DNA of 64,000 nt from a bacterium (GCA_011046415.1 DSAP01000089.1:4064-68063); one strand, 5' to 3'. Counted from the stretch's first letter, positions 2,953-60,630 are shown. Made by a program: numbers and translations. Notes: generated from the sequence alone by a model not told the origin.

Positions 2953-4695
2953 TCAGTCCGATTCAAGAAACCGAACCACCCGCTCCGGGGGAAGGAATCC
3001 CTCGAACCGCCGCAATTCGCGTCGTTCCGCATCGAGCAGAACGACGGTCGGCATGCCGACGATCCGGTACCGCGCCTGGATCTCCCGGGAGCGGGCGTCG
3101 GTCCGGGTCAGGTCGATGCGCAAGGGGACGACGTCCTTCAGGGCGTCCCGGACGGCGGGATCCGGCCACGTTTTCTCGTCCAGCTCATGACAGGCCGCGC
3201 ACCAGTCCGCGAAGAAATCGATCAGCACGGGACGCCCCGTGGACCGGGCCGTCCCGAAGGCCGTCTCCTCGTCCGTCAGCCAGTCCCCGAAATCCGGCGA
3301 GGGGGGCGCGGTTATCGTCCCGGATCCGGGTGACGGGGATAATGGAAATGCCTTTTGGCCGAGGATGCCGAGCACCAGGCCCGTCGATCCGGCGAGGATC
3401 AGGAGGAATCCGGCCGCCTTGGCCAGCCGGTCCTTCCAGGACGCCTCCGCCGCGAGAGGGGAGAATCCTCCCCAGAACGTCCCGAGTATCACGAGGAAGA
3501 CGGACCAGGCCATCCCATAATGAAAGCCGGACAGCACAGGCTTGAGGAACAGGATCGCGAGGGCGATCAGGATCCATCCGAAAGCACGCTCGATGTGCTC
3601 CGTCCAGCCGCCCGATTTCGGCAGGGTCTTGAGCACGCCCGAGAAGGTCCCCAGCACGATGAAGAGGACGCCGATGCCCCAGGCGAACGCGAAGAGGAGT
3701 CCGAATCCGAGCAGGACGGAACCGGAACGGGCCACCCAGGTCAGGATGACGACGAGCAGCGGACTCACGCAGGGCGACACCACCAGCCCGGCCACGATCC
3801 CGGTCAGGACCGCGCCGATGAAACCGCCCCGACGCCGGCCGTGCAGTTTCATGCGCCATGCGGAAGGCAGCTGGATGACGAAGGCGCCGAGCATGGACAG
3901 CCCCATCAAAAGGAATATCGCGGCGATCACGGCCTGGATGACGGGATGCTGGGTGAACGCGCCGAACAGGGCGCCGGTCCTGGCGGCGATCACGCCGAGG
4001 GTGGAGAACGTGAGGGAGATGCCGAGCACATAGAACAGGGAGAGGACAAACCCCTTCAGCCGGCCGCCCGTGGCCTGCGCGCCGATCACGGCGATGGTGA
4101 TGGGGATCATCGGATACACGCAGGGCGTCAGGCTGGTGAGCAGCCCGCCGAGGAAGACGAAGAGGAAGGCCAGCGCCGAACCCCGTTCCAGCGCGGATGA
4201 GAGCCGGGCGGTCATCCCCCCGCCGTCCGGCGCGGGGGATGCCGGCGGGGCGGCATGGGATAGTTCGATGACGGTTTCCACCGTTTGAGTCGAGGGGGGA
4301 TAGCAGAGATCCCGGACCTCGTCACAGGGCTGCATCATGACGTCGAGCCGGACGGGATAGACGCCGGGTTTGGCATCCGGCTGCGTGCGGAAAGCGAGCG
4401 AAACGCTGATCCGGCCCCGGTACACCGACCCCCATTTGTCCCGCTCGCCCGGGGGATAGGCCGGCGCGCCGAAGGTGAACACCGGATCGTCCGGAGGCGT
4501 CACCGAGAACAGTCCTTCCGACGCGTCGCTGATGTGAAATCCATCCGGAACGGACACTGATACCCGGATCCGTCCCCCGTCGCCCGGCCGGACGGCGGAC
4601 GGACCGGCCGCAGCCTCGATCCGGATTCCCGTTTCCGTCCGGGCCGGACCGGCCGCGAAAAGAGTAAGAATCAGCAGAAATACGCGAATACGCAT
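2953..4695 (-). CDS. dsbD: Thiol:disulfide interchange protein DsbD (N-terminal periplasmic domain, TM core, C-terminal thioredoxin domain)
   Basis: Signal peptide MRIRVFLLILTLFAAGPART, a polytopic central region with paired Cys, and a C-terminal thioredoxin motif FADWCAACHELDEKTW. Confidence 0.85.
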   Translation of the reverse strand: MRIRVFLLILTLFAAGPARTETGIRIEAAAGPSAVRPGDGGRIRVSVSVPDGFHISDASEGLFSVTPPDDPVFTFGAPAYPPGERDKWGSVYRGRISVSLAFRTQPDAKPGVYPVRLDVMMQPCDEVRDLCYPPSTQTVETVIELSHAAPPASPAPDGGGMTARLSSALERGSALAFLFVFLGGLLTSLTPCVYPMIPITIAVIGAQATGGRLKGFVLSLFYVLGISLTFSTLGVIAARTGALFGAFTQHPVIQAVIAAIFLLMGLSMLGAFVIQLPSAWRMKLHGRRRGGFIGAVLTGIVAGLVVSPCVSPLLVVILTWVARSGSVLLGFGLLFAFAWGIGVLFIVLGTFSGVLKTLPKSGGWTEHIERAFGWILIALAILFLKPVLSGFHYGMAWSVFLVILGTFWGGFSPLAAEASWKDRLAKAAGFLLILAGSTGLVLGILGQKAFPLSPSPGSGTITAPPSPDFGDWLTDEETAFGTARSTGRPVLIDFFADWCAACHELDEKTWPDPAVRDALKDVVPLRIDLTRTDARSREIQARYRIVGMPTVVLLDAERRELRRFEGFLPPERVVRFLESD

Positions 4696-4753: not shown

Positions 4754-5194
4754 TCAGGACGACATAAAACCCGTCCGGAGCGCGGTTTCCCAGTCCGGGC
4801 GCCCGTTCCTGCGGGCCTGTTCCGCCGATCTCTCGAAGTCGTAGGGGACGGCGATTCCTTCCGTCTGCCACTGATCGTTCATCTTCTCCAAAATCGCGTA
4901 CCGCGCATGAGGCGACCCGGTTTCCATCACATGATATTCCGGGAAATCATCCTCATAGGCCGGGAGCCCCACGCTGACCGGATTCACGATCAGCATGTCC
5001 CCGGACAGGTTCACCACCCTGGGGACATGCGTATGGCCGCACAGAACGACGTGGTTTTTTGTTTCTCCGAGCCGGTCCCGGATCTCTTCCGGTGTCGCGA
5101 GCCGCGCCCGGCCGTGCTCCACCGTTTCCAGAAAGAGACCGTGAAGTCCGGTTGACCCCTTGTCGTGCAAACGGATTCCGACACCCGTGATCAC
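4754..5194 (-). CDS. Metallophosphoesterase-family protein (YfcE-like), N-terminal metal motifs degenerate
   Basis: C-terminal motifs VLCGHTHVPRV and LIVNPVSVG are present. The N-terminal DxHG and GDxxD motifs are not recognisable (IRLHDKGSTG). It is 146 aa, against about 160-180 aa typical. Confidence 0.5.
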   Translation of the reverse strand: MITGVGIRLHDKGSTGLHGLFLETVEHGRARLATPEEIRDRLGETKNHVVLCGHTHVPRVVNLSGDMLIVNPVSVGLPAYEDDFPEYHVMETGSPHARYAILEKMNDQWQTEGIAVPYDFERSAEQARRNGRPDWETALRTGFMSS

Positions 5195-5237: not shown

Positions 5238-8200
5238 TTAGAAATCCGCCCCCAAAGACCAGTAATGCATCGGCCTTTTTTGGGTGGACACCAGATCCGT
5301 CGGCCAGGCTATATCATACCGGAGCAGCAAAAACCCCATGTTGACCCGGGCGCCGAATCCGAGTCCGCCGCGCGCCTGGTTCAGCCGGGGGAGAAGACCC
5401 GGCCCGTCCGTGAACGGCCTCCATTGCCGGTTGCTGCTCCACGCCGAGCCGACGTCGAGGAACACCGAGCCGCGAATGTTCTGAAACCCGATGCCCAGGG
5501 GTCCGCCGAGAATCAGGTACCGGATCATCGGAAACCGGAGTTCCAGATTCATCAGTGCGAAACGGGTTCCGATCATCTCGTAGAACGGCGTCCCGCGGAG
5601 CGGCCCCTCGAACGAGGAGAAGAAAAACAGGTCCTCGTAGAGGATCTCGTCGAAGACATCACGATATTTGTAATTGATCCAGTTCGTCATGCCGCCGAGC
5701 AGGAAACGCTGGGGATTCCGGCCGTTCGAGAACCCGGTAGAAAGGCGAATGGCGAGGGTATGATCCCGGACGAGCCGCAGGTATTTGCGCCAGTCTGCCC
5801 GCGCGGAATAAAAGGAAAATCCGCGATCCTCGCTGATCAGCGGGCTGTAAGTCAGGGTGATATTGGAACGGCCGCCGTTGACCGGTCCGGTCATGCCCCA
5901 GAGTACGGTATCGGTCGTGTATCCCAGGCTGAAAAAGACCGTCCGTTTTTTATAGATGGAACCGAGACTGTAGGAATAATCGCCTCCGTAATAGGGATAA
6001 TACCAGTTCAGGGCTTCCAGGTCGCGGTCGATCGCGAGGCCCGTGGCCGAAAAATCGATTCGCCGGTACCGGCTCATCGGATGGGAGAGATACAGACTCA
6101 CCCCGTAATTCCGGTCCCGGAGATATCCGTAATACCACGAATTGTCATAAATGAAATAGGTGTAATACAAATAGGAATAGTGAAATAAAGAGATGCCGAT
6201 ATCCGTCTGCTTCGGAAGATAATAATATCCGGCCATGAAATTGGAGTTTTTCAGGCTGTAAAACAGATCCGTATACAGGTTGATCTGGTGATTTCCCAGG
6301 ATGTCCGAAAGCACGATCATGGAACTGCCCTGGAGCCCGAAAAACTGGCTGTATCCGGCGCCTCCCATGACCATGTCCGGGGTGAACCGGACTTTATATT
6401 TTTTGGAAATGTAATCTCCATCCTCCGTCTTGAATTCGCCGGAATCAGGAAACGCCCGGCTCCTCAGATCCTGACCCTCGATGCGTCCCTCCCTGAAATT
6501 GCGGTCGAAGACGAAATTCTGGAACCGGCCGGCGGGCTGTTCGGCGGACGGCGAGGGGGGGGGCTCTTCAGGGTCGGCTTCTTTCTTCTGTTGCATGAAC
6601 GCGGTGTCCACGACCCGGACTTCATCCGGACGGATGTCGAGCGGATTGTTGATCAGGTAGAGATCATAGCCGGCATTCGAAAAAGCGGAGAAAACCAGGC
6701 GCGATCCTTCGCGGGACCACGAAAGCTGTGAGATGCCGGTCATGAGGTTGGTGACCGGGTAATGCGTCCCCTGGTTTCGATCATAGAGATAGATGTTGTC
6801 CACGCCGCTTTGGTCGGAGATATAGGCGATATGGCGACCGTCTGGGGAAAAAGCCGGACTCTTTTCATCGGCAGACGTGGCCGTGATCCGCGTAATCTGG
6901 CGTGAGGCGACGTCCATCACGTAAACGTCATTCTGACTGTAATCATGGGTCTGCATCCGGAAGCCGTCCGGAACAGTGCCTAAATAATCCTGCCGGTCCG
7001 AAACGAACACCAGCTCGGTGCCGTCCGCGGACCACGACGGATCCATGTCGCTGAACAGATCGTCTGTCAGGCGTTCTGTTTTTTCGCTTTCGATCTCGAG
7101 CAGGTAGATATCGGACTGGATGCCCTTGACCCCCATGAAGGCGATATGGCGTCCGTCCGGAGACCACGACGGCGAGTAGATGCCGTCCAGGTCAGGCATA
7201 AACTGACGCACGATCCTGCGTCTGCCCACATCGAGAATATAGAGACGGTCACCCCTTCCGGCCTTGGCTGCGAAGGTGATCCGGCGGCCGTCGGGAGACC
7301 AGCTCATCCCCGGCCTCAGCCAGTGCATCTGTTCGAAAAGTTCGGAACGCTGACCCTTGACGATCCGTCCCTTGTCCTTTCCATCCACCGTGCTCATCAA
7401 CCGGATGTCCATGTAATCGGATCGGTCCGAAAGATAGACCAGCTTGTCTCCCTTCGGGGAAAGCGCCGGGGCGGCGTTGAAGAAATGGTTCCGTTTTGCG
7501 TGATCCGTGAGCCGTTTCGCGATCTCTTCGGGCTCATTCCGGTCCTGGATGTCGGGCCAGTAGGTCCTCCGCAGATGCTTGTGCCAGCGGTCGGAAAGCT
7601 CCTCCAGGTCGATTCCGAGTGACTGCTTGATGCCCGTGTCGACATTGCGGTTCAGACGGATTTTCCCGAGGATCTCCCCGATCTTTTCCTGACCGTACCG
7701 GTCTGCGATATAATTGAGCAACGACTGTCCGCCCTTGTAGACCATGAACCCCGACATGTATTCGATCGGCGGCACATACCCGTTGATGACCGCGTCGCGC
7801 ATAAACATGTCGCTTTTCGTGTCCCAGCCGAGACTCTCGTATTCGGCCAGCCCTTCGGCCAGCCAGAGCGGAATCTGAAACCGGGCCATCCCGGTCACCG
7901 CCGCTCCCACACCCCCCCCGTAAAACATCTGAAATGTCACGGCGTGCGTCAGTTCATGGTGGATGACATGGCGGAAATCCTCATAGCTGCCCTGGAAGGG
8001 AAGGGCGACGCGGTTCTTGAAGATTTCGGTGAATCCGCCGACGGATTCGCCGATATCGGACAGCGTGACATTGGTCTGCTGGAAATCGTTGGCGCCGTTG
8101 TAGATGATGATCGGGACCCGCGATTCCAGATCATATCGGAAATTTTTCTTCAGCGCCACATAGCTGGATTCCGCCACATCGGCCGCGAACTCCGCCAGCC

Positions 8201-8384
8201 CCTTGCTGTCGTCGTAATAGTAGACATCGAAGTGTTTGGTCTGGATATACCGCCAGTTAAATTCCCTGTACTGGACCTTGTTCTTTCCGAATCCCTGGGC
8301 AAGGCCATGCCCCGAAATCATGAAGACGGACATCAGGATGATCCCGCCGGATGAAAGACGCTTCAGTCGCTTTCGTGATGCCAT
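5238..8384 (-). CDS. Outer-membrane Omp85/D15-family beta-barrel fused to a TolB-like (PD40) beta-propeller and an N-terminal HExxH-containing domain
   Basis: Signal peptide MASRKRLKRLSSGGIILMSVFMISGHGLAQ, with the start trimmed from the track start at 8516. HELTHA motif. Repeated SPDGR/SWSPDG PD40 blades. C-terminal about 430 aa with Omp85 motifs (LELRFP..LGGPLGIGFQNIRGSVFLDVGSAWS..GGLGFGARVNMGFLLLRYDIAWP) ending in ..WSLGADF. Confidence 0.75.
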   Translation of the reverse strand: MASRKRLKRLSSGGIILMSVFMISGHGLAQGFGKNKVQYREFNWRYIQTKHFDVYYYDDSKGLAEFAADVAESSYVALKKNFRYDLESRVPIIIYNGANDFQQTNVTLSDIGESVGGFTEIFKNRVALPFQGSYEDFRHVIHHELTHAVTFQMFYGGGVGAAVTGMARFQIPLWLAEGLAEYESLGWDTKSDMFMRDAVINGYVPPIEYMSGFMVYKGGQSLLNYIADRYGQEKIGEILGKIRLNRNVDTGIKQSLGIDLEELSDRWHKHLRRTYWPDIQDRNEPEEIAKRLTDHAKRNHFFNAAPALSPKGDKLVYLSDRSDYMDIRLMSTVDGKDKGRIVKGQRSELFEQMHWLRPGMSWSPDGRRITFAAKAGRGDRLYILDVGRRRIVRQFMPDLDGIYSPSWSPDGRHIAFMGVKGIQSDIYLLEIESEKTERLTDDLFSDMDPSWSADGTELVFVSDRQDYLGTVPDGFRMQTHDYSQNDVYVMDVASRQITRITATSADEKSPAFSPDGRHIAYISDQSGVDNIYLYDRNQGTHYPVTNLMTGISQLSWSREGSRLVFSAFSNAGYDLYLINNPLDIRPDEVRVVDTAFMQQKKEADPEEPPPSPSAEQPAGRFQNFVFDRNFREGRIEGQDLRSRAFPDSGEFKTEDGDYISKKYKVRFTPDMVMGGAGYSQFFGLQGSSMIVLSDILGNHQINLYTDLFYSLKNSNFMAGYYYLPKQTDIGISLFHYSYLYYTYFIYDNSWYYGYLRDRNYGVSLYLSHPMSRYRRIDFSATGLAIDRDLEALNWYYPYYGGDYSYSLGSIYKKRTVFFSLGYTTDTVLWGMTGPVNGGRSNITLTYSPLISEDRGFSFYSARADWRKYLRLVRDHTLAIRLSTGFSNGRNPQRFLLGGMTNWINYKYRDVFDEILYEDLFFFSSFEGPLRGTPFYEMIGTRFALMNLELRFPMIRYLILGGPLGIGFQNIRGSVFLDVGSAWSSNRQWRPFTDGPGLLPRLNQARGGLGFGARVNMGFLLLRYDIAWPTDLVSTQKRPMHYWSLGADF

Positions 8385-8409: not shown

Positions 8410-8994
8410 TTACAAATCCGACTCATCTTTCCAACGCGTGATACGCCACTTTTGATCCTTGTTTTTTTTAAACGTGAATACAGCTCTGCCGGTGACGGTG
8501 TATCCGGTCTGCTCACCCACCAGGGTCAACCCGAATCCCCGGCTGATGTCGCTCGTTGTTTCGCCCGCGTTCTCATAAATGGTCTCATTCCAGACCAGAT
8601 CGATGACCTGGAAATGGCGGAACATCCGGCCCGTGGTGAGGAGGTCTTCGTGCCGTCCCCAGGATACGAACCGGCTCTCGTCCGGATTGAAGTAGACGAA
8701 AAGAAAGCCCGTATCGAGCACGTCGCTGTAGAGCAGGGAGTCGCGGAAGGTGTACGCGATCTTGAAATTCTGCAGCACCTCCTGCGGTGTCGCCTGGGAC
8801 GTGATGATCATGTCCGTCGCCTCCAGGTTGTCGGTCAGTCTGGGCGCGAAGGGGTTGAGACAGCCGGAAGAGAGGACGAGACCGGCGCAGACCGCAGCCA
8901 TCACCGCGAACCGGGTCGTGACGAACCGCATCCGTTTCTTTCGGCTCCCGGATGTCTTTCCGGGAACGATTTTATGGTTCCCACCCCGTTTCAT
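8410..8994 (-). CDS. Lipoprotein, hypothetical
   Basis: Lipobox LVLSSGC after a basic N-terminus. There is a 25-nt gap to the downstream Omp85-fusion gene. Confidence 0.5.
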   Translation of the reverse strand: MKRGGNHKIVPGKTSGSRKKRMRFVTTRFAVMAAVCAGLVLSSGCLNPFAPRLTDNLEATDMIITSQATPQEVLQNFKIAYTFRDSLLYSDVLDTGFLFVYFNPDESRFVSWGRHEDLLTTGRMFRHFQVIDLVWNETIYENAGETTSDISRGFGLTLVGEQTGYTVTGRAVFTFKKNKDQKWRITRWKDESDL

Positions 8995-11882: not shown

Positions 11883-13814
11883 TCAGTCGGTAATCTGCTG
11901 TTTCGCAAAAGCCAGTGCCCCGCCTGCCCGCAGGATCCGGACGTCCCGTCCGGACAAATTGTGAAGGACGCGAATGTCGGTTCCCTGTGTCTCGTTTCTC
12001 AGCATCATCCTGCCGGAATCCAGGCCGGAGGTGTCGATCGTCACGGTGTCGTCCTGTGCGATCGTTTCGTAGTCTCCCTCGTCCTCGAACACGAGAGGGA
12101 GGATACCGAAATTAATCAGATTGGCCAGATGGATCCGGGCGAATGATTTGACGACGACCGCCTTCACGCCGAGCGCCATGGGGGCCAGTGCCGCGTGTTC
12201 CCGGCTCGATCCCTGTCCGTAATTGGCGCCGCCCACGACGATGCCGCCTCCGGCTTCCCGTGCCCGTTTGGGGAAGGTGGGGTCCACCGCCTCGAACACA
12301 TATTCGGATATCGCGGGGATGTTGGACCGCAGCGGAAGGATTTTCGCCCCCGCGGGCATGATATGATCGGTCGTGATGTTGTCGCCGACCTTGAGGAGCA
12401 CCGTTCCCCGGACCGGATCGGACAGGGGTCCCTTGATCGGCAGCGGCTGGATATTCGGCCCGCGCTGGATGACGACCCTCTCCGGCGCATCAGACGGGAG
12501 GAGGATCATGGCATCGTCCACGGGAAAAGTTTCGGGGGTGCGGACCTGAACCGGCTCCATGCCCAGGTCGCGGGGATCCGTAATTTCACCGGTCAGGGCC
12601 GCCGCGGCCGCCGTCTCCGGGCTGCACAGATAAACCCTGGCGCTCTTGGTGCCGCTGCGTCCCGAGAAATTCCGGTTGAAGGTGCGCAGCGAAACCGAAT
12701 CGGTCGGGGGCGAGAACCCCATGCCGATACACGGGCCGCACGCGTTCTCAAGGATGCGGACGCCCGAGGCGACGATGTCTTTCCACTGACCGCCGTCGAT
12801 CAGGGCGGTCAGGACCTGCCGGGATCCGGGAGACAGCGCGGCCGAGACACCGGGATGGATTTTGCGTCCTTTCAGCATGGCGGCGATCATGGCCACGTCC
12901 CGGAAGCTTGAATTGGTACAGCTGCCCATGGCCACCTGATGAACCTTCGTCCCCTTGAGAGAATGCACAGGCACCACGTCATCCGGTGAATGCGGCCGGG
13001 CGATCAGGGGCTCCACGGCGGACAGATCGATTTCGAGTACCTCGTCATAGTCCGCATCCGGGTCCGCCCCCAGCGGGAGGTAATGTTCGTCCCGGCCCTG
13101 GGCCCTGAGAAAGATCCGCGTCATCTCGTCGCTCGGAAAAAGCGAGCTGGTGGCTCCGAGTTCGGCCCCCATGTTCGTGATCGTGGCGCGCTCGGGAACG
13201 GTCAGCGTCTCCACACCGGGGCCGGAATACTCCATCACTTTACCGACACCGCCTTTGACGGTGAGCCTCAGGAGGATTTCGAGGATGACGTCCTTGGCCG
13301 AAACGAACGGCCGGAGCCTGCCGGTCAGACGGACATTCACGATCTTGGGCATGACGAGGTGAAACGGCCGTCCGGCCATGGCCAGGGCGATGTCGAGTCC
13401 GCCCGCGCCGATCGCCAGCATGCCGAGTCCGCCGCAGGTCGGGGTGTGGCTGTCGGATCCGAGCAGCGTCTTTCCGGGAAGTCCGAACCGCTCGAGATGG
13501 ACCTGATGGCACACACCATTTCCGGGACGCGAAAAGCGTATCCCGTATCGGGATGCGATGGTCTGGAGGAACAGATGATCGTCCGCATTTTCGAATCCGG
13601 ACTGGAGGGTGTTGTGATCGACGTAGCTGACTGAAAGCTCTGTGCGTATCCGGTCGAGCCCCATGGCCTCGAACTGAAGATAAGCCATGGTGCCGGTCGC
13701 GTCCTGGGTCAGGGTCTGATCCACACGGATAGCAATCGGGGAACCCGCAATGGATTCCCCGCTTATCAGATGACCCGTGATGATTTTCTGTGTCAGATTC
13801 TGTGGTATCATCAT
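11883..13814 (-). CDS. Aconitase-family hydratase (fused catalytic and swivel domains, about 640 aa). It is probably an aconitate hydratase, given the adjacent icd.
   Basis: Motifs [33 protein letters not shown] and [17 protein letters not shown]. Start trimmed to MMIPQNL, where the ATG overlaps the upstream TGA as ATGA. Confidence 0.75.
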
Positions 13815-14482
13815 CCATTTCCGCGGCCTGCGATGGCCTCGCGTTGTTTTTGGGAATTCAGATGCATCTTGCGCAGCAGTTTCCAGATCGTCAGCTTCCC
13901 GACCCGGATAAATCCGTACCGGTCCGTGTCGAGTTCCCGGGCGATCTGGCCGTGTCCCCATGAAGGGTGATCCAGCGCGATCTTGCGGATTTTTTCTTCG
14001 AGTCCTTCAGGAACATCCTCATCGGCTCCCTCCGAAGTCCGGATTTCCGTTTCCGCGTTTTCGGGTTCCTCTTGAACGGAATCAAGCTCTGCGGACTCTT
14101 CCTCGATGAAAGTTCGTGCTCCGTCCGCGCGATTGAAATCCCGGATCGCCGCCTCGACCGAATCATAGGCTTTGAGTATATAATGGAATTCGAGGAGTTC
14201 GAATACTTCGTATACGTCCGGAATCATGTTGGCCAGCTTGAGGTCACCGCCGCGCTCCCGGATTCCTTTGATCTCGCTGATGAAGATTCCCCAGCCGGCG
14301 CTCGAAATATAATCCACGTTCCGGAGATCGATGATGACGCGGAAGACACCCGATTTGAGCAGAGAATCCAGAGCGCGTTCGAGCTCTGAGGATGTGGTGG
14401 TGTCGATGTATCCGCCCACCTTGATGATCGAAATATCCTTTTGGGTCCCCGTTTTCTCTACAGAAACTTGAATGCCTTCCAT
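13811..14482 (-). CDS. STAS-domain anti-sigma-factor antagonist (SpoIIAA/RsbV-like) with a C-terminal transposase-type HTH extension
   Basis: STAS core with the phosphorylatable-Ser motif NVDYISSAGWG. Then an acidic linker and ALDHPSWGHGQIARELDTDRYGFIRVGKLTIWKLLRKMHL, an HTH_32-like sequence. Start taken at MEGIQVSV. Confidence 0.75.
   Translation of the reverse strand: MEGIQVSVEKTGTQKDISIIKVGGYIDTTTSSELERALDSLLKSGVFRVIIDLRNVDYISSAGWGIFISEIKGIRERGGDLKLANMIPDVYEVFELLEFHYILKAYDSVEAAIRDFNRADGARTFIEEESAELDSVQEEPENAETEIRTSEGADEDVPEGLEEKIRKIALDHPSWGHGQIARELDTDRYGFIRVGKLTIWKLLRKMHLNSQKQREAIAGRGNG
13814..13993 (-). other. HTH_32-like (IS3/IS481 transposase N-terminal type) DNA-binding module appended to the STAS protein
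   Basis: About 45% identical over about 55 aa to the HTH segment of the neighbouring kinase/phosphatase protein (the HPxYG..I..EL..xKYGF signature). Confidence 0.6.
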
Positions 14483-14556
14483 TTTCATCTCCTTAAAAAA
14501 ATTATCATTATATAACATAATGACACAACGAAATTTAATAGAAAATCACACCATTG

Positions 14557-17500
14557 TCAACTTTTTTTCTGATAAACCGCCCTCTGCCGGATAAGCCGCT
14601 GCATCCGTTTAATGCGTTCCACGATATCGCCGCGCATGGGATCGCGCTTTAAAACCTCTCCCCACTGCCAAACCGCCCTCTTATAATCTCCCTGATTGGC
14701 GTAGATGACCCCCAGATTTTCGAGGATATGGACATTGTCCGGCATCAGCTCGCGGGCGGCCGTATACGCACGCTTGGCCTTTTCGAGCTGCCCCAGACGA
14801 AAATAGGCATCGCCCTGGGCATGGTAGGCTGCACCGAATTTCTGGTCGCATGCGATGGCCTTGTTGAACTCTTCGATGGCCCGAGCAAAGAGACCTTCCT
14901 GGTAAAACCACTGGCCGGATTCCAGAAACCGCATCCGGTTGAGCCGCCGGGCATTCTCCGGGTTGGCCTCCAGGATGGCCGGTTGCCGAGTCTCCAGATC
15001 CGACCCTTCACCGAGAAGGGAATCCGTCCATATCTCCATGTCCGTCTCGTCGAAAATCTCTCCGGTTATTCCGGATTCTTTCCGGCCCGAATCCTGGTTT
15101 TCCTCGCCGATCAATTCATCTATCAGAGATTCCTGCGAACCATCGGATAAAAACCCGGACATCAGGGGAAAAAACGCCGGATCATCCCCGGATTCTGTAA
15201 CCGCTTCCGGCAATACATCGCCACTGTCGTCTCCTGCGGCGAGCGGGTCGTCAAACGAGTCATCCATCCGTATCAGGAGACCGGAAGAATCATCAACGAG
15301 TGATTCAAACGAGAAGTCATCCCGGGGATCAGAGGACGGCTCACCCATCCTCTCAGTCAGCGCCTCGTCGATGTTTTCGGGGTGGGGCTGCTCGGATTCG
15401 GATTCGACGTCCAGTTCTTCCCAATCGGCTTCCATGGCTGAAATTTCCTCGTCATCGCCGGCGGACTCTCCGTCGTCTTCGGATGCGATGCCGGTGAAAT
15501 CGCGTTCGATCGCTTCCGCAAGGTCCTTGTCTCCGGGCGGCTGGACGGTCACTTCCGGTGTCTCCTGCACGGAAGGATGTTCTTCTGCTTCCTTATGTTC
15601 GGGTGGGGCGCCGCGTGAAACGGCGATCTCAGGTTGTTTTTCGGCCGGTTTTCCCTGGAGGTGATCCGTTTCGGGCGTCTTCTTTTCGGGCAGAGACGTT
15701 CCGGGCGACGGTTTCGAAGGGGCGGGCTTGCGGAGTGTCGGCGAAATAATAACCCGACCGTCCAGCGTCAGCATGGGCGTCCCCGGTGTTTTCATCCGTT
15801 TTCCGCGTCCGCCCCGCTCCACGAAGGCCATGCGGAGTTCCTTGGTATTGAGACGGTTTCGCACCAGTTCTTCGTATAACCGGGCTTCATCGATCTGGAA
15901 AAAGCCGTATTTTTCCGTGTTGAGCTCGTCACGGATCCGTTTCGGTCCGTACTCGGGATGGGTCTTGATTACATCAAAAATCTTGGCCTTGTCTTCGATG
16001 GCGATGTGTTTTTCTTCGATGAGGGAGCGGCCGACCCGGTCTTTCATTCCCTGCTCGCCGTTTTTTTCATAGAGTTTTTTATATTTATAATAAGTCGACG
16101 TGGAAACGCCCGCCTTCTCACAGGCCTCCTTGACTGTCATGCCTTCCTTCTGCACCATGCGAAGCAGATCCGTATGGATATTCAGAAACACCTCTTCCAC
16201 GCTCATCTTCTCGCGGATCGCAACCAGGGTGATGTCATCGCTCTGCGGCTCCCCGCCCGTAAAGGTATAGATCTCCTGTTTGATGCTCTCGACGAGGGGT
16301 TCCACCTTCTGATCGCCCGCCTTGCGGATCACGGACAAAAACCGCTCGTCTCCGAACCGGTTCCGGTTGATGTCCATCGCCTCGGTGATGCCGTCCGTAT
16401 AGACGATCAGCACATCATCCGGACGAAGCTGAAGCGTGTCCGACTCGATGGAATTTCTGAACAAAGTCTGGTCGGGCAGGTTGATTCCGATCGGAAAACC
16501 GCGCGGGTTCAGATAGTAGCTTTTCTGGCTTTGACCGCGGTAAAGAATCATGGGATTATGACCCGCGCTGGCATAGTTGATCGTCCTGCGTTTCGAGTCG
16601 AGGATGATGTAAAACACGGTGACGAACATGCCGCGCTTCATGTCGTTGATCACGAAATCATTGACTTTGGACAGCACATCGGCCGCATTCTTGTTGCCCC
16701 GCGCCTCCGTCCTGAGCGCCGTCCGAATCATGGTCATGACCAGTGATCCGGGCACCCCTTTGCCGGACACATCCGCGACCACGATTCCCAATGAATCCCT
16801 GTCCACCCTGAAAAAATCGAAATAGTCACCGCCCACCTCCTTGGCGGCCTCGTAGCAGGAGGCGATCTCATAGCCATCGATTTCAGGGAAGGTCGCCGGA
16901 AGCAGGGTGTGCTGGATTTCCTGGGCCACCTGCATTTCTTTCTGGAGCCGTTCCTGTTCCGCCAGATTTTCCTGGGATTTTCTGAATTTCTCCGTGATCT
17001 CGTTGAAGGCCTGGGCGATCTCGCCAATCTCGTCGTTCCCATCGAATTCCATCTCGTCCCGGACCTCGCCGTGGCCCAGATCGCGGACCCATTTGGAGAG
17101 TTTCTTGAAGGGACTCATGGTAAGATAGACGAGTCCGAATGTGAAGAGATATCCGAAAGCAAGCGCGAGAATCGCCTTGATAAGAGTAAATTGACGTTCC
17201 GATTTGATCGTTGCATCGATCATCTGTTTGTTCATCAACACATGGACGGTACCCAGGCGGATATTCCGGTTGTCCACCTGCTTGAGGGCCGGTTCGACGA
17301 CATCATACACCCTGACCCCGTCATGCTGAAACTGATACACATGATCACGGATCGGGTTCGCCCCGGCCGGCAAGATGAATTCATTGTGAAGCGCTTCGAG
17401 GTTGACGACTCCCTGAATTACGTTGATCGTATCCACGACGATGATCTCGACGATGCGGGGATGATATTCCCTGTGAATATCGGTCACGATCGTGGACAAG

Positions 17501-18153
17501 TCCCACCAGTTTGGGGGGTCGTAAGAAAGATACTCGATACTCTGGTGGCCGACGGACCTGGCCAGCGTTTCACCGGAAGCGAGCGCATCATTCCTGATTT
17601 TATTGTCAAGATGAAGATAGGTCCAGATGAACCAGATCAGCATCAACGCCGTCAGGAGCACCGAAGCGAGCGCGGAAAACCGGGTTTTCATGGAAAACGG
17701 AATCTCCGGAGTACGGAGCCGTTTCATGCCGGTCTTTCTCGATTTGGTGAGCCGGAGTTCATTGCCTTCCGGAAGTTTCCGGTAATCGATTTTGTCGATC
17801 ACACGCCGGATAATAAATATCCCGAGGCCGCCTTTCTTGCCGATATGCACGTAACGCTGGAGATCCGGGTCTTTCACCTGTCTGGGATCAAAGGAGTGCC
17901 CCTGGTCCACCAGCGACACCGTCACGTCCTTATCCCGGATTATCATCCGCATGGTGATCGCGCCTTCCCAGTCGCGGTAGGCGTGCCGGATGATGTTGGT
18001 GCCGGCCTCGTCGATTGCCAGTTTGAAGGCGTTGATCACCTGCTCTGAGATCCCGTGTTTCCGTCCGAAATGCATCACGGAATCGCGCATTTCACCCAGA
18101 TGATCGATCTCGGCAGGGAAGGTCCATTCTTCTTTGATGACGCGTTTGAACAT
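14557..18153 (-). CDS. Multidomain partner-switching regulator: RsbW-like GHKL Ser kinase, TM, periplasmic sensor, TM, HAMP, PP2C/SpoIIE phosphatase, transposase-type HTH (HTH_28 plus HTH_32), polyacidic region, TPR repeats
   Basis: Residues 1-145 are HATPase_c-like (AIDEAGTNIIRHAY, GGLGIFIIRRV). There are two hydrophobic helices. HAMP is NDEIGEIAQAFNEITEKF. PP2C is GGDYFDF..VADVSGKGVPGSLVMT..GHNPMILY..IVYTDGITEA. HTH is MTVKEACEKAGVSTSTYYKYKK followed by THPEYGPKRIRDELNTEKYGFFQ. A D/E-rich stretch of about 170 aa follows, then C-terminal TPRs. Confidence 0.8.
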   Translation of the reverse strand: MFKRVIKEEWTFPAEIDHLGEMRDSVMHFGRKHGISEQVINAFKLAIDEAGTNIIRHAYRDWEGAITMRMIIRDKDVTVSLVDQGHSFDPRQVKDPDLQRYVHIGKKGGLGIFIIRRVIDKIDYRKLPEGNELRLTKSRKTGMKRLRTPEIPFSMKTRFSALASVLLTALMLIWFIWTYLHLDNKIRNDALASGETLARSVGHQSIEYLSYDPPNWWDLSTIVTDIHREYHPRIVEIIVVDTINVIQGVVNLEALHNEFILPAGANPIRDHVYQFQHDGVRVYDVVEPALKQVDNRNIRLGTVHVLMNKQMIDATIKSERQFTLIKAILALAFGYLFTFGLVYLTMSPFKKLSKWVRDLGHGEVRDEMEFDGNDEIGEIAQAFNEITEKFRKSQENLAEQERLQKEMQVAQEIQHTLLPATFPEIDGYEIASCYEAAKEVGGDYFDFFRVDRDSLGIVVADVSGKGVPGSLVMTMIRTALRTEARGNKNAADVLSKVNDFVINDMKRGMFVTVFYIILDSKRRTINYASAGHNPMILYRGQSQKSYYLNPRGFPIGINLPDQTLFRNSIESDTLQLRPDDVLIVYTDGITEAMDINRNRFGDERFLSVIRKAGDQKVEPLVESIKQEIYTFTGGEPQSDDITLVAIREKMSVEEVFLNIHTDLLRMVQKEGMTVKEACEKAGVSTSTYYKYKKLYEKNGEQGMKDRVGRSLIEEKHIAIEDKAKIFDVIKTHPEYGPKRIRDELNTEKYGFFQIDEARLYEELVRNRLNTKELRMAFVERGGRGKRMKTPGTPMLTLDGRVIISPTLRKPAPSKPSPGTSLPEKKTPETDHLQGKPAEKQPEIAVSRGAPPEHKEAEEHPSVQETPEVTVQPPGDKDLAEAIERDFTGIASEDDGESAGDDEEISAMEADWEELDVESESEQPHPENIDEALTERMGEPSSDPRDDFSFESLVDDSSGLLIRMDDSFDDPLAAGDDSGDVLPEAVTESGDDPAFFPLMSGFLSDGSQESLIDELIGEENQDSGRKESGITGEIFDETDMEIWTDSLLGEGSDLETRQPAILEANPENARRLNRMRFLESGQWFYQEGLFARAIEEFNKAIACDQKFGAAYHAQGDAYFRLGQLEKAKRAYTAARELMPDNVHILENLGVIYANQGDYKRAVWQWGEVLKRDPMRGDIVERIKRMQRLIRQRAVYQKKS
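15814..16161 (-). other. Transposase-derived HTH_28 plus HTH_32 module embedded in the kinase/phosphatase protein
   Basis: Residues about 665-780 of the 1198-aa protein. No DDE catalytic domain follows. Confidence 0.6.
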
Positions 18154-20119: not shown

Positions 20120-20362
20120 TTATTTTACGAAAGCCATTTTGAATTTAAATATCTCTCCATTTCCGGTCTGCATGATCAGATGGTAGACGCCGTTCAAGAC
20201 CTCCCAGCCCCTGTCATTGCAGCCGTCCCATGTCCAGCGGTTCACCTGGCCGGCCGACACCTCCGATTCGGCGACGTCATATGACTTGACGAGCTGGCCG
20301 ACAAGGGTATAGATTCTAAAGGAAACGGAGGTCGGTTCCGGAATGTAGTAATAGATCGTGGC
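20120..20362 (-). other. Coding segment for the T9SS-type (Por_Secre_tail / FlgD-Ig-like) C-terminal sorting domain of the giant protein
   Basis: Matches the general TIGR04183-type pattern (NPF...I.Y.I..V..IY.L.GQLV....G...W.G.....G..GVY.......K...K). Confidence 0.55.
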
Positions 20363-23300
20363 GGTCTCCCTGCCCGGCTCACCGAACGGATTGGGACTGC
20401 TCCACAATCGGGCTTCTTCGTTTGGATTGAAAATCCGGAGTGGCGCCGAAGGAATGCTTTCCAGTTCGTCTCCTGTCGGACTCTTGACGAGTACGTCACG
20501 GTCTGAAGCGGCTTCTCTCGCCGAAATGGCCTGTCCGTCCGGCACGCTCACCCTGAAAAAGGGGACGGTCTGTGACTCCGCGATGCGTCCGCGAATCAGA
20601 ATTTTTTTGCTCTGATTGTAAGGAATTTCGAGACCGGACAGGGAAATCCGGACCGGGTTGGCCTCCGGAATCTGGGCCGTCGTTCCGTAAATGTCCGGCC
20701 CATTCATCTCGACCGCCTCGAGACGGGACACCGCCGACCGTGGCCCGATATCTTCGCCTTCCCGTCCCGTGAGGGTCAGCCAAATCTCGCGGATGATGAT
20801 GGGATAGGCACCGGTTTCTCCCCGGTTCTGAAACTCCAGGCCGAGCAGGGGGACGTTGCTTTGCCCGGGCGTCAGGGACTGATTTGCCCCGGACAAGACC
20901 AACGGCGTCACAGAGAGCCAGGTTGATTGTAACCGGACGGCGACGGCATGATAATCCCGTCCGACAAATGCAGGTTGATCGGTATTCTCATCAACGGGAA
21001 TCTTCGTGAGCCGGGATTCGATCTGGGCGGCCGCGGTGGAAGGTTGTGACGGGGCTTTAATCGTCCAGAAGGCCTCGCCGCCGGAGAGTGTTTGCGCCAG
21101 GACCTCCCGTGTGGTATATTGAGGTGGAAGCGCGAGGAGCGAGACTTCGATGTCACCGATGGTTTGGGCTTCCCCGGAATTCTGAACCGCGGCCCGGACC
21201 ACGAATTCCTGTCCCAAAGAAACCGTGCCGTATTGTGCAGCCTCCGGCGGACTGTCGATCGTCAAGAATAGCGCAAGATCGGCCTTGGAAACGGTGTTCA
21301 GGGGGAGTGCATTCGGTACTCCTCCGATGGGAACCGCGGGTTGCAATGCATCAACACCCCTTGCCGTAACGATGAGAGTGCCTTCGGATACAGGCGTCGT
21401 CGGAGCCGTGACCAGCCAGGTCACCGTATCTCCGCTCGCGCTCTGGGTCAGGTTGTTTTTGGTGTGATATCCGAAGGGGAGTTCGATCCGTGCCGTGATT
21501 TCCGTGACATTGTCGGAAATCATTTCTGTCCGGACCACGAAGGACTGTCCCGTGGACAGGATACCGTCCGAGGCGCCCGACGGTGCGGAAATGGACGTGA
21601 CGGATCTCAGCCGGCTGGCGATGGTGGTAATCGGCGCCTCGGCAAATTGATCTGTGACGACAACCCGGACATCCGTGTTTTTATCGATCGGATACTGGAT
21701 CAGATCGACGCGGACCTTGTCGTTTGTCGAAGGTTCATTCGGGGCCCTGAGTCGCCATTCTGCCGGAACCTCAGGAGTGATACCGGCCGAATCCGACGCC
21801 GAGATCAACTGGTATCGATCGGGCCAGCGTATCCTCACGCGTCCCTCATTCTTTAATGCGGAAGATCCCTGCTTGAGCAGTCTGCCCTTCACCTTGAATT
21901 CCTGATTGACAGAAACCACACCGTCGGCCGGTTCGGTTTCTATACTCAGAGAGAGAGAGGCTGGACTCTGGACAAATACCACGGCGGTGGGATCGCTGGC
22001 CTCTCCGATGGGTGCGTCATCCGTTCCGTTCTCCCGTTTAGCCCCCTGAATCCGGGACGTAAAGGTTTCTCCGGAGAGGTTTTCCTGATTTGCCGCCAGT
22101 ACGTCAAACCACACCGAGTCACGTCTGGAGGGTTCAAGGCGGGTTAACAGGACCTGCGGATTTTCGATGGCCGAAAGGCCATTGGATTCCATCCGGACGT
22201 CGATGTTGCGGATCGTGAAACTCAAACCGTTCTCGACGATCACCAAGACACGAAAAGCCTGTCCGGTATTCACGAAGCCGTTTTTTGACTCGGTGGTGTT
22301 TACTGTCGCGATTTCCGTCGAGATAATCCGGAAATCCGGTTTGGACTCGATAAAGACCTGCGCCTCGTTCTCTGCCCTGAGCGTCCGCAGGTCGTTGCGG
22401 TCTTTGCCCCCGGCCCGGACGCGGATCCGGACATCTCCTCCGTAGGTACCGGTCGTATTCACATGATAGATCAGCGAATCGGTCACCCCGGGGGCGAGGA
22501 TCAGGCCGCCTCCTTTCAATGCGTTCGGGGGAACGACTTTATAATCCGTCTGATAAATGCCGCCCACGAAGAAGGCGACGCTGTCGGCAGAGGGTCTCGA
22601 GAGTTCGATCGCCGACCCGCCTGTGTTGCGGACGGCGACCTTGATGTGCCACGGATCGGTTTGACCGCCGAGAAGAAGAGTCTGTGAAGTCGAGACGGAC
22701 AATACCTGAAAGACCGCAGGATTCTGGATGGTCGCCGTGGCCGTCTTGTCTGGAGAATTCCCGTCCTCCAGGAAAAGGGCCGTGTTTTCGGCAAATCCGC
22801 TTGCAGAAACGGTGAATGTCTCCGATCCGGGAAGGGTCGACGCCGTCACCGGAACGGTCAGAGAATGAACCTGCCCACCGGATAATGTTCCGATATAATG
22901 TGCCCTGACAAAAGATGAGGTGCCGGAACTTCCGATTTCCACCTCCACATCCCGCATGGCGTCTTCGCCGAGGTTTTCGACCTGGAGGAAGAGATCGAAA
23001 ACCTGCCCGCGGTTCACATACGGGCTGTTCGGGGCGCGGTTGGTGACTTGCCGGACGATCAGATTGGCCGGTGCTTCGATCAGGACTTGCCCGTGACCGC
23101 CGTCGCGCGTGTCTGTCTCGAGTCGCCGCCCTGTAGTCATTTCGAGGCCTGCAACATAGGCGTCGATCCTGCAAAGACCGGCGGCCTGATCGGTCGTCCG
23201 TGTCACTTCAAATATCAGACTGTCGGTTTCACCTCCCTCAAGAACCCAGTCACCGGTCCAGGAAGGCGGATAGGTCAACTCCCATGTCTGGGGAGCGCCC

Positions 23301-26300
23301 AGAGAAAATTCCAGATAGCTCGCGGTCGTACTCGAGTCGATCGCCGTCGCGCTTCCTCCGGTGTTGGTGGCCACGACGGCCACACGCCAGGGCATGACCT
23401 GGCCCCGAGAGACCTCGGCCTGGGACGGCTTGACCATATGGATCACCAGATTCGCCGGCGTCTGTACCAGGAGGTTGGTAAATGCATCATCCGACAGGGT
23501 GACCCCGGAGCCCAGCAGATACACGAAAAGCCGAATCGTGGCGCCCCCCGCATCGCTGCCGGTGTGAAGAACGGGAATCAGGAGCGAATCGATCCCGTTT
23601 CCGGGCAGCGTCTCCTCGGCGCTGCCCCAGAACGCCGTCGGCAGCTGGAGGGTGTAATCGTGGCGCACGATACCGGCCACATTGAATTGAAGCCGGACAC
23701 TGTCGAGACGGACCTCTGATCCGCTGAAATTGCGGACGGTACAACGGAGATACCAGACCGAATCCTGATCGGTTGTGACGGATTGAATGCCGGTGGCCCT
23801 GTCTTTCCCGACCGCCCTGAAATCGGAGACCAGAATGCCCGGAGAAAGCACCACATCGAACAAATTGGATTCCGAAAAAATAAAACCGCCTGTCTGAGTC
23901 ACTCGCATTCGGTTGGCCGTCCTGGCCTGATGCACCGTGACGCCGGTCGTCAACACGCCGTTGCTGAAATTCGGGCTGACATCGGGTCTGATCGTGCCTG
24001 TCAGATCCGAAATATCCACGGTTTGGGTGAAATTGGTCTTGACATTGCCGTAAGCGTCTTCTGCGGTAAGCGTGGTTGAAAAGGGAACCCCCACGATCTG
24101 ATCCCCGATATGCTGGATCGCAAATCGGTTCAACGCCGCGGGCAGCACGTTGAACAGATTGGAACTTCCCCTTTGCACGCCCCCCTGGTAAACCATGATT
24201 CTCACATCATTCCTGGCCCCTGTAATTCGAACCGTTTGTGTGAGGAGGCCGGCGCTGAACGATCCGGTCGCAGCCGGCGTCAGCGTGCCTGTGCTGTCGG
24301 AAAGGGAAACCTGTCCCGCAAACTGGGTCACGATATTCTGATATGTGTCGAGCGCGGTCAGGTATATCTGGAAGTCTGTACCCGCCATCTGCGGACTGGC
24401 CACCGGGGCCACAGAAATGGTCTGAACCGACCCCGGATTGACATTGAAGACCTCCGAGACGCCGCTTTTCCCGAGTCCGCTCACGGTAAGCCGGTTCTGT
24501 GACTGGCTCTTCGTGATGGTTACCGTGGCGGTCCCCACACCGGATGAGAAGGTGATCTGTTTCACATCATTGGTCCCGGTAAGGTCTGCGAGATTGACCG
24601 TTTCATTGAAGCCGGTGACGAGATTGTTGTTCACGTCATAGGCGCGGACGGTCACGGAGAATCCCTGACCCGCGGTCTGCGGCGTCGATATCGGATCAAA
24701 TGTGAAATGGTCCACGGTCGTCGGGATCACGTTGAAGGTATTCGAGATGGCGCTTTGCGTACCACCGTCCCGGACGACCGTGATCCGGTCATTCGTTTGG
24801 GTCTGGGTCACCGAAATCGTGCCAGACCAGATGCCGCTTTGAAAATCATCGCTCTGAGACCGTGAAAGCGATCCCGTGCCGGTATGGCCGATGTTGACCC
24901 GGTTTCCCGGTCCGCTAAACCCTGTCACGGTGTTGTCATACGCATCCTGCGCGGTCACGGTGAGGCTGAAGGGCACGCCCGGCGTCTGGGTGGCGATCTG
25001 TGCGATGGCGAAATGATCCAGTGTATTGGGCGCCACGTTGAAGGCGTTCGATGTCCCCGTATGGCCGGCGCCGTCGTCCGCCGTGACCCGGACATCGTTG
25101 ACCGCCTGTGTAATCGTCAGGGTGACCGTACGGGTGCCGTTCGAAAAGGCGCCGGAAACAGACGGCGAGATCACGACGGGAGAGGAACCCGACGCGGCTG
25201 AAAGCGGAACCGTGCCGTTAAACGACTGTGAGACATTTCCGAAGGCGTCGCGTGCCGTGATCGTGACCGGAAAACCGGTTCCCGCCGTTCGCGGACTGGG
25301 GACTGCCGAAAACTCAAACCGGCTGACGCCCGCTCCGGCCACATTGAATGGGTTGGAAGTCCCGCTTTTACCCAGCGCCGTCGCGGTCAGGACATTGCTG
25401 TTCATGGCTTGCGAGATCGAAATCGTACCCGTCCATGTCCCGTCGACGAGGGTGACCTGCTGCGGCGAATGCGTTCCCGTCTCATCACGGATATTCACCA
25501 CCTGGTTGGTGAAACCGGTCACAATATTGTTGTTGACATCTTCGGCGCGGATTGTTACGGAAAAACCGACGCCCGCCGTCTGGTTCACGGGAATCGCGGA
25601 AATCACGAAATGGTCGACCGTACTCGAAATCACATTGAAGGCGTTCGACTGGCCGGTGTGTCCGGACCCGTCGTTCACCGTAATCCGGTCATCCGTCTGG
25701 ATTTGATTGATACGCAGGTTTCCGGTCCAGACACCGCCAGTAAAATCGCCGCTCTGGGTGGGAATGAGGGTTCCCGTACCCGTATGGGAAATGTTGACCC
25801 GCCGGCCTGAGCCGGAGAAGGAAGCGGCCGTGTTATCGAAGGCATCCCTCGCCGTGATGGTCACCAGAAAAAATTCTCCCGCCGACTGGGTGCTGATGTT
25901 GGACAGGGTGAAATGATCCACGGCCGCGCCGTTGACATTGAAGGGACCGGATGTCCCGGTGCGGCCGCCTCCGGAAGCCTGGATATATATGTCCGTGTTC
26001 GCCTGGGTAATCCGGACATTCCCCGTCCAGACGCCCGAGGAGAAATTTTCTGTGCTCGCCGAAGATGTGGCATCAACCGTGACCGTACCCGTCTTCTCGC
26101 TGAGGGTCGCCGGATTCGTATAATCTGTCTTGATATTGTCGTAACCGTCATAGGCCGTGATGGTCAGGCTGAACGGAACACCGGCCGTCTGCGGACTGGA
26201 GATGGGGCCGAATACAAATTGATCCAGGGCTCCCGGTAACACATTGAATGCGGCGGATGATCCGGAACTCGTACCGGATGTCGCCAGGATCGCATTGGAA

Positions 26301-60600: not shown

Positions 60601-60630
60601 GCGCAATTCCCGGAACTCCGGATCCGGTGA
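57613..60630 (+). CDS. Paralogous polytopic membrane / spermidine-synthase-like fusion protein with an about 250-aa C-terminal TPR extension
   Basis: Same architecture as the upstream gene (FFLSGAAVLIYQLVWLR.., ALAVGLGMGVAA.., YDVISSN.., LNPGGVV), plus TPR helices (LGMLYLENGETDRAVQML.., LGLAWMQAGRPDRALDRM..). ATGA overlap with the upstream gene. Confidence 0.7.
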   Translation: MTDPFMVGKTPQSVPDTLSSRMAGGLHLIFFLSGAAVLIYQLVWLRILELVFGVTVYAVGTVLAAFMAGMALGSLIFGQLADRMRRPLLLLVLFETGLMLYALAFPSWLRLIMTLLTDIMPDPATPFFGRNIFRFGLGFCLLLPPAALAGGGLPVVGKTLIRSRSRLGGQVGGLYAACNAGAFLGCVLTGFFLVRMLGARGATLVGAALNGVNLVLLVFWILRKHPAISPQETVAAVPYDGGDHAAGTRRGIPAWIGVILAALVFEGFCAAAYELVWMRMLNHFSADKSLALTGTVFAAFLFGLSAGSLAVRRWIDRTGRPLAVLGVIEMAIGLAGLAVPFVLRHLGGRFMQLRAGYSENWWNTIGAEYAVFFLILAAPATLMGMTFPIFGRLLCDSIPHLGGRLGRLGFLDTAGSILGAFAAGFFLIPAFGLIRTGTATAVISLAVGAALILIQPDLRPKTRTAFLIAFFLAGTGLACVLPVSSAMTGWQGRRPEDRVVFHAEGPSATVTVFETLEGERRMAINGSISAFGESDLEIDKMRGLVPALLHPGPKTALAVGLGMGVAARSLLTPGLTRLDCVELSETVALASDSCYGGVNGRVMRDPRFHLIVEDGRNFLLLTPDTYDVISSNSIHARLSGFLYTREFYALCRSRLNPGGVVCQWLTTNWLTEEEFKRLVAAFLVEFPHTRLWASGVSNLILVGSETPLKVDVARLEFLFRHPEVTPLLTDPLLMDPLDELPRFLSRFVCAEDALRDYVRGTPPETDDRTAAEFSRVVKPACNPAIIGALAAMKTDIGPWLIVEDGADRDGFRRDILASAAAEKACMEGILAFNYLDDRERGAGLLNEAVKRDSLSFRYRDLLSSFYRFDGRPDDAIGTLLPLMSVRPGDIRLLRRLGMLYLENGETDRAVQMLTFPADRGDVLSLYFLGLAWMQAGRPDRALDRMSRVVSHRPEFLDARMQLGLLLTVFGRYGEAAVHLQYCRDRGYGTEEIRRIAAQFPELRIR

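Follow-up and report, generated by a model that had tools for sequence, protein, structure and literature searches.

A WD40-like Omp85 protein from candidate division KSB1 that carries a predicted zinc-peptidase domain and a TolB-type propeller in place of POTRA domains

Omp85 proteins have a central part in building the outer membranes of bacteria, mitochondria, and chloroplasts, and POTRA domains are used by nearly all members studied so far. We describe here a gene for an Omp85 protein of a subfamily, widespread in the FCB group, in which these domains have given way to a TolB-like propeller and a zinc-peptidase domain whose active site is complete. The gene (the target) occupies 5238..8384 on the minus strand of a window of 64,000 nt of bacterial DNA (GCA_011046415.1 DSAP01000089.1:4064-68063); all coordinates below are window positions, and every feature of the target lies on the same strand. 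The function of such a protein would show the extent to which the Omp85 scaffold has been repurposed, as PlpD, an Omp85 protein of the patatin-like kind, recently did, and might reveal a route of outer-membrane protein quality control. The KSB1 copy introduces no new principle and is a clean, full-length, typical example.

Translation from the ATG at 8384 to the stop codon at 5240..5238 yields 1,048 amino acids (aa) plus the stop. The plus strand over 5238..8384 contains many stops and was rejected as the coding strand; a first-pass annotation of this sequence had proposed an open reading frame (ORF) across the interval, which is real and has the expected 1,048 codons, although the strand had gone unstated. 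A mechanical ORF call extended the gene to a GTG at 8516, a start that was discarded in favor of ATG 8384 on the strength of the public gene call and the homologues, and that would overlap the upstream gene. The public call gives an identical 1,048-aa product (P0001) on an 84-kb metagenome contig, and homologues of 1,020 to 1,060 aa align with the target from residue 1 onward, so ATG 8384 is the supported start. As the first-pass annotation had it, the chain opens with a signal peptide (aa 1 to 30, MASRKRLKRLSSGGIILMSVFMISGHGLAQ; 8295..8384), recognizable by its basic n-region, hydrophobic core, and LAQ-type cleavage site. Cleavage is predicted after that site, and the conserved mature N-terminus, FGKNKVQY, starts directly past the signal peptide in all homologues. 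The mature target contains no Cys, and its relatives contain 0 to 5.

Domains were identified with Pfam profiles, using curated cut-offs for calls and looking for POTRA families down to an E value of ≤0.1, and with NCBIfam. A full-chain AlphaFold2 (AF2) model was built with 34 homologues as input (predicted local distance difference test [pLDDT] score, 76.9; predicted template modeling score, 0.70), and the peptidase domain was modeled separately (pLDDT, 79.8). Conservation was read from two alignments, one of 34 close relatives and one of 38 relatives down to 30% identity. Peptidase_MA_2, PD40, and Omp85 all exceed their curated cut-offs, so that each kind of profile that the first-pass annotation had led us to expect (Bac_surface_Ag/Omp85, PD40, and peptidase) was matched. 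The AF2 model places, in order, a mixed helical and beta peptidase domain, six four-stranded blades, a low-confidence segment, and 16 long barrel strands.

The peptidase domain (aa 31 to 282; 7539..8294) is of the gluzincin type (clan MA). Pfam Peptidase_MA_2 (PF13485) matches aa 72 to 271 (E value, 3.2e-15; 56.9 bits versus a cut-off of 32.4) and was matched in 26 of 26 family members tested, some of which also gave weak Pfam matches to M9, BSP, M61, or M1. The best PDB fold matches of the domain model, determined with Foldseek, are clostridial M9 collagenase peptidase domains, including that of collagenase H (4ar1), and many M1 aminopeptidases, including PepN, ERAP, IRAP, and tricorn factor F3 (1z1w), with E values of 2.5e-4 to 1e-2 and TM-scores of about 0.5. 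PDB sequence searches with the domain alone or with a 26-sequence profile returned no meaningful relative, and the domain thus has no solved close relative.

The active-site motifs are in place. HELTH (aa 143 to 147; 7944..7958), in the context HHELTHA, provides H143 and H147 as predicted zinc ligands and E144 as the predicted catalytic base, while the predicted third ligand, E177, lies 30 residues past the second His in LWLAEGLAE (aa 173 to 181; 7842..7868). The corresponding HExxH-to-Glu spacing in M9 collagenases is about 28 residues. Further downstream, Y216 in YKGGQS (aa 216 to 221; 7722..7739) is a candidate transition-state-stabilizing Tyr, a role that it probably plays by analogy with M1 and M9 enzymes. 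H143, E144, H147, E177, E181, and Y216 are invariant in all 34 close relatives and in 38 of 38 sequences of the wider alignment. About 23 residues ahead of HExxH, GGFTE (aa 116 to 120; 8025..8039) is predicted to form a substrate-binding edge strand that may be likened to the GxMEN strand of M1 aminopeptidases; G117 and E120 are at least 95% conserved, and residues 118 to 120 form a strand in the model. Conservation this strong at the zinc-binding and catalytic residues speaks for a functional active site and against a relic, and to judge from the sequences, the peptidase is very probably active.

HExxH with a downstream Glu and a thermolysin-like fold, which together define a gluzincin, were found by motif and by fold match, and both are shared with the clan MA(E) families M9, M1, and M61. 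The target differs from these in being a minimal domain of about 250 aa that Pfam places only in the generic Peptidase_MA_2 family. The Peptidase_M1 profile does not match the target and is matched weakly by 3 of the 26 relatives (best E value, 0.076), and GGFTE stands where M1 enzymes have GxMEN. M1 enzymes also have flanking domains, for which there is no room here, since the peptidase region joins the signal peptide directly to the propeller. The Peptidase_M9 profile likewise finds nothing in the target at an E value of ≤0.1, with weak matches in 9 of the 26 relatives (best E value, 5e-4), and the M9 resemblance of the modeled domain is confined to the level of the fold. HELTHA had been flagged in the first-pass annotation as a possible zinc-peptidase motif, to be told from a noncatalytic one by a third ligand in a structure prediction; E177, in WLAEGLAEY, is predicted to be that ligand, and the HExxH sits in a true gluzincin catalytic context. 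The alternative that this region consists of degenerate POTRA repeats was rejected, since a gluzincin is indicated by Pfam, by the fold matches, and by the invariance of the catalytic residues.

The propeller (aa 300 to 585; 6630..7487) is of the TolB/PD40 type and has six blades, at the upper end of the four to six first suggested. Pfam detects PD40 in five stretches (E value, 4.6e-33), SP(D/K)G-type blade motifs occur six times (at aa 309, 363, 408, 452, 513, and 557), and the AF2 model shows six blades of four strands each across approximately the same residues. TolB is the best match in the PDB both by sequence (E value, 2e-18) and by fold (Foldseek E value, 5e-13); the propeller also matches Tricorn_N and Tricorn_2nd (precomputed matches), DPPIV_N, and Peptidase_S9_N. 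The NCBIfam TolB model TIGR02800 is matched in part (148.6 bits versus a cut-off of 343), with the best stretch at profile positions 197 to 300 of 418, and the PDB TolB matches begin at chain residue 175 or later, so that only the propeller part of TolB is matched. The N-terminal alpha/beta domain of TolB is covered by none of these matches, and whereas TolB is soluble, the target is anchored by a barrel.

Between the propeller and the barrel lies a charged, disordered linker rich in Pro, Glu, and Lys (aa 586 to 662; 6399..6629), the Pro/Glu segment noted in the first reading of the sequence. Its pLDDT falls below 50 at aa 605 to 647, and the segment is poorly conserved and of variable length: close relatives have 75 to 92 aa here, and the family at large has 35 to 196 aa. 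Predicted disorder and variable length are what a tether would show, and these approximately 77 aa probably act as a flexible one. POTRA domains, reported missing at the outset, are indeed absent: no POTRA family matches at an E value of ≤0.1 in Pfam, and none appears in the AF2 model.

The barrel (aa 663 to 1048; 5241..6398) is matched by Pfam Omp85 (PF01103) at aa 716 to 1048 (E value, 2.4e-11; 44.2 bits versus a cut-off of 24), over profile positions 26 to 325 of 325. DSSP assigns 16 long strands between aa 667 and 1045 of the AF2 model, with a long predicted loop 6 between strands 11 and 12, and BamA barrels are the fold matches in the PDB (Foldseek E value, about 1e-11). Two Omp85 signatures are conserved. 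PLRG (aa 928 to 931; 5592..5603), the counterpart of (V/I)RG(Y/F), lies in loop 6, with R930 kept in 38 of 38 and G931 in 37 of 38 sequences; FLDVG (aa 975 to 979; 5448..5462), the (F/G)xDxG motif, lies in strand 13 (aa 965 to 982 of the model), with the Phe, Asp, and Gly kept in 36, 37, and 35 of the 38 sequences, respectively. The chain ends in HYWSLGADF, an aromatic beta-signal whose last residue is Phe in the target and Phe, Tyr, or Trp in 33 of 34 close and 35 of 38 wider sequences. Both the C-terminal Omp85 barrel and its aromatic end had been called correctly from the sequence. The target thus resembles BamA and TamA in its 16-strand barrel, loop-6 RG, strand-13 FxDxG, and aromatic C-terminus, and it differs from them in lacking POTRA domains and in its added peptidase and propeller. 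The BamA equivalog TIGR03303 scores 39.1 bits against a cut-off of 297, over the barrel part only; with NCBIfam resemblance partial in both cases, the target is neither TolB nor BamA.

A search of 5.8 billion protein sequences returned more than 5,800 matches, the best 120 of which are full-length, about 1,020 to 1,060 aa, and alike in architecture. They go under generic names (PD40 domain-containing protein, biopolymer transporter Tol, BamA/TamA family outer membrane protein, and peptidase MA family metallohydrolase), and the closest named matches among those listed are from candidate division KSB1. At least 590 species, counted at one genome per species, encode a relative; the best 80 of these represent KSB1, Calditrichota, Ignavibacteriota, Bacteroidota, Zixibacteria, Marinimicrobia, LCP-89, and Kryptonia, and the family belongs mostly to the FCB group. 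Full-length relatives at 40 to 48% identity occur in Calditrichota, Ignavibacteriota, and Bacteroidota genomes. With the peptidase domain as the query, 857 clusters at 50% identity were recovered (E value, ≤1e-30), in which the domain is nearly always N-terminal in proteins of about 1,000 aa.

The first-pass annotation had suggested such a survey of the architecture as a check; the novelty implied there is overstated in view of an earlier classification. Ten subfamilies of the Omp85/TpsB superfamily were distinguished in 2014, one of them termed WD40-Omp85 or WD40-like and described as having a TolB-like propeller in place of POTRA, likened to a BamA-BamB fusion (Heinz and Lithgow, PMC4104836). 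Its Table S2 lists architectures with PF01103 and PF07676 whose counts sum to 62, i.e., several dozen proteins, and its Table S3 gives 1z5h, 4kxd, and 4ar1 in a column headed "best aminopeptidase hit" and 2w8b and 2ivz as TolB hits (PMC4104836). The target has the same PF01103 barrel with N-terminal PD40 (PF07676) and no POTRA; 2w8b, 2ivz, and 4ar1 recur among its fold matches, and factor F3 recurs as 1z1w where the 2014 table has 1z5h. There is no difference in kind, the match being one of architecture and fold classes rather than of listed accessions, and the target comes from KSB1, which was hardly sampled in 2014. The target is therefore a member of the WD40-like Omp85 subfamily, a typical one from a newer lineage, and its architecture had already been cataloged by bioinformatics. 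In 2024, two papers noted the existence of subfamilies with "WD40 and peptidase domains," which, in their words, "have not been well characterized" (PMC11358297, PMC11116518).

Taken together, these features suggest a zinc peptidase that is anchored in the outer membrane, faces the periplasm, is gated by its propeller, and processes or degrades proteins of the envelope, a reading to which we assign a probability of roughly 60%; confidence in any specific substrate class is much lower. As a general rule, Omp85 barrels have their N-terminus on the periplasmic side. PlpD of Pseudomonas aeruginosa, another N-terminal enzyme fused to an Omp85 barrel, follows this rule, its enzyme domain having been placed in the periplasm by experiment (PMC11116518), and from the rule and this precedent we infer a periplasmic orientation for the target. 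The preprotein would be exported via its signal peptide, and the gluzincin and six-bladed propeller would hang in the periplasm as one module on the disordered tether, over which it could range several nanometers. H143, H147, and E177 would hold the zinc, E144 would be the general base, Y216 would probably stabilize the transition state, and the GGFTE strand would bind an extended substrate chain. If tricorn protease and the S9 peptidases are a guide, the propeller may restrict entry to unfolded chains or oligopeptides, or it may dock partner proteins. Those enzymes (tricorn, S9 prolyl oligopeptidase, and DPP-IV) similarly join a PD40-type propeller to a peptidase but have serine catalytic domains and no membrane barrel, and gating in the target is presumed by comparison with them.

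The likeliest role would be a housekeeping one, in which envelope proteins are processed or degraded at the inner face of the outer membrane; this would make the target a one-polypeptide functional analogue of BepA, a zinc protease at the barrel assembly machinery (BAM) that degrades stalled outer-membrane proteins (PMC13067283). The proposed likeness is that of a periplasmic zinc protease at a site of outer-membrane assembly; the two are not homologous, BepA being an M48 enzyme with a TPR domain and a soluble BAM partner rather than an Omp85 fusion. PlpD offers a further parallel, the reuse of the scaffold for a nonassembly function, although it has a patatin lipase and one POTRA domain, forms homodimers, and has neither propeller nor peptidase.

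Several points weigh against this reading. The topology is drawn solely from the general Omp85 rule and the PlpD precedent. The long tether may mean that the barrel serves only as an anchor, which would weaken the analogy with BAM quality control, and the data are equally compatible with a nutritional oligopeptidase. No universal partner gene that would point to a substrate emerged from 80 related loci, surveyed by tblastn with the window neighbors and by de novo ORF clustering; the largest cluster apart from the target itself is present in 14 of the 80 loci. In full-text literature searches, the architecture turned up only in the 2014 classification and in single-line mentions since then, and in no functional study.

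A different assignment would make the target an outer-membrane-protein assembly or translocation factor, with a BamA/TamA-like barrel, a propeller serving as a fused BamB-like scaffold, and an accessory peptidase that trims or clears substrates. This role was proposed by Heinz and Lithgow (PMC4104836), and it agrees with BamA as the best barrel fold match and with the strong conservation not only of the loop-6 RG and strand-13 FxDxG motifs but also of the seam strands beta1 (KFTPD..GYSQFFG) and beta16 (P..HY.SLG..F). The same barrel motifs, however, are required for the folding of any Omp85 barrel, and the resemblance to the BamA equivalog is slight. The target lacks the POTRA domains that BamA, TamA, and TpsB use for substrate handling, its propeller has six blades of the PD40/TolB type whereas BamB is described as having eight (PMC11358297), and a tether of 35 to 196 aa decouples the module from the barrel. 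We consider an assembly factor unlikely.

The seam also allows a more active version of the peptidase reading. The beta1/beta16 seam might open like that of BamA and pair with edge strands of stalled or misfolded barrels, or dock TamB-type bridges, and substrates might then be passed to the tethered, propeller-gated peptidase. This is an improbable elaboration, but if it holds, the protein would be a self-contained machine that extracts and degrades outer-membrane proteins, and it would address the ATP-free removal of defective proteins already integrated in the membrane.

No better placed is a surface-exposed or secreted nutritional protease whose N-terminal module is moved through or alongside its own barrel in a type V-like manner. 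Many FCB bacteria are proteolytic, and the low Cys content noted above is common for passengers that are exported unfolded. PlpD was at first assumed to act in this way, but that passenger model was overturned by experiment in the same study that showed its enzyme domain to be periplasmic (PMC11116518). The target has kept loop 6 and its RG motif, and the solved BamA and TamA barrels are closed to the outside (PMC4104836). With neither POTRA nor an autocleavage site, with a propeller of the type found as a periplasmic module, and with a broad, housekeeping-like distribution, the target makes a doubtful secreted protease.

The gene neighborhood varies with lineage. In the window, the minus-strand order is lipoprotein, target, small Metallophos_2 ORF, and DsbD; the gaps between these genes showed no terminator-like site, and a single promoter-like site was found upstream of the lipoprotein gene. 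The lipoprotein (8410..8994, minus strand) has 194 aa, no assigned family, and a conserved lipobox Cys, and its TAA stands exactly 25 nt before the target ATG, the gap given in the first-pass annotation; the two genes are probably cotranscribed. It represents a small conserved family whose mature proteins begin C-(L/I/V)NPFAP and continue with TPxEVLQNF in 7 of the 7 homologues with N-termini read. The lipobox reads SSGC45-LNPFAP at the target locus, against a family consensus of [GS]C-(L/I/V)NPFAP, and the window copy ends in WRITRWKDES. Searches of Pfam, NCBIfam, and the PDB found no relative. The lipoprotein gene is directly upstream in 10 of the 80 loci (L001 to L005, L007, L009, L010, L012, and L013), all from close KSB1-type relatives.

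Downstream, DsbD, a thiol:disulfide interchange protein (2953..4695, minus strand; Pfam DsbD_TM E value, 8e-49), is found close by at more than 45% identity in 10 of the 80 loci, again all close relatives, and by ORF map is the very next gene in 9. The small ORF between it and the target (4754..5194, minus strand) matches only the C-terminal part of the Metallophos_2 profile (Pfam E value, 2.2e-6) and is present in 0 of the 80 loci. The related Pfam entry PF00149 we take to be Metallophos, the calcineurin-like phosphoesterase family. A "Metallo" subfamily of Omp85 has a fused PF00149, termed a metalloprotease domain in the paper that describes it (PMC4104836), and the position of a Metallophos_2 ORF beside an Omp85 gene is probably coincidence.

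Elsewhere, the neighbors change. The order tamB (PF04357), RNase R gene (rnr), target occurs in 13 to 14 Ignavibacteriota and Bacteroidota loci (L047, L049, L052, L070, L073, and others; about positions 1 to 6000 of the loci), with gaps of only a few nucleotides in L049, L070, and L073, and with TamB kept without RNase R in L075 and L078. MlaE lies directly 3′ of the target, usually followed by an ABC ATPase, in 11 to 12 Calditrichota, LCP-89, and Marinimicrobia loci (among them L032, L035, L041, L042, L043, L045, L053, L065, and L069, at about 9050 to 10650, and L033, where it is a little further downstream); the gap is 3 nt in L041 and L043, and the arrangement suggests that the target homologue is cotranscribed with a lipid transporter of the Mla type. 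In 11 loci (L014 to L021, L023, L038, and L061), the first downstream gene encodes a protein of about 430 aa with a GWxTD domain (PF20094); such a gene also lies within a few genes of the target homologue in 3 other loci, for a total of 14, and a CcsA-like protein adjoins the target homologue in some other loci. These lineage-specific neighbors, mostly envelope-biogenesis genes, hint at an envelope housekeeping role.

The TamB and Mla contexts raise the thought that the target is an outer-membrane partner of lipid homeostasis, docking TamB/AsmA-like bridges or Mla, with a regulatory peptidase. TamB lies within about 2.4 kb upstream in its tightly packed loci, and the PlpD study reports that loss of PlpD alters membrane lipid composition (PMC11116518). 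Yet the synteny is lineage specific and may be purely historical, the unrelated RNase R gene separates TamB from the target, and neither TamB nor Mla genes neighbor the target in this window. For a peptidase, a lipid substrate is not obvious. TamA offers TamB a POTRA domain to dock on, whereas the target has none, and a lipid role is accordingly quite improbable. Weaker still, the notion of an inactive relic peptidase in a purely structural protein, such as a TolB-like tether between outer membrane and cell wall whose propeller could bind Pal-like proteins, is very hard to square with zinc-binding and catalytic residues that, unlike those of a pseudoenzyme, are invariant in all 38 sequences down to 30% identity.

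Other genes in the window have features of their own. An ORF of 2,301 aa with a TTG start (20120..27025, minus strand) matches no Pfam family at an E value of ≤1e-5 and shows a subthreshold FlgD_ig-like match at its extreme C-terminus (aa 2219 to 2289; 23.5 bits versus a cut-off of 27); its product may be a giant secreted or surface protein. A 624-aa ORF (32714..34588, minus strand) has no Pfam match even at an E value of ≤1. A 1,198-aa protein (13811..18153, minus strand) combines HATPase_c_2 kinase-like, HAMP, SpoIIE/PP2C phosphatase, HTH, and TPR regions and adjoins a STAS protein with an HTH_21 tail; the pair look like an unusually fused partner-switching module. Two overlapping tandem genes on the plus strand (55331..57616 and 57613..60630) encode proteins of 761 and 1,005 aa, each a fusion of an MFS_1-like region with a spermine/spermidine synthase, and the second also has C-terminal TPR repeats.

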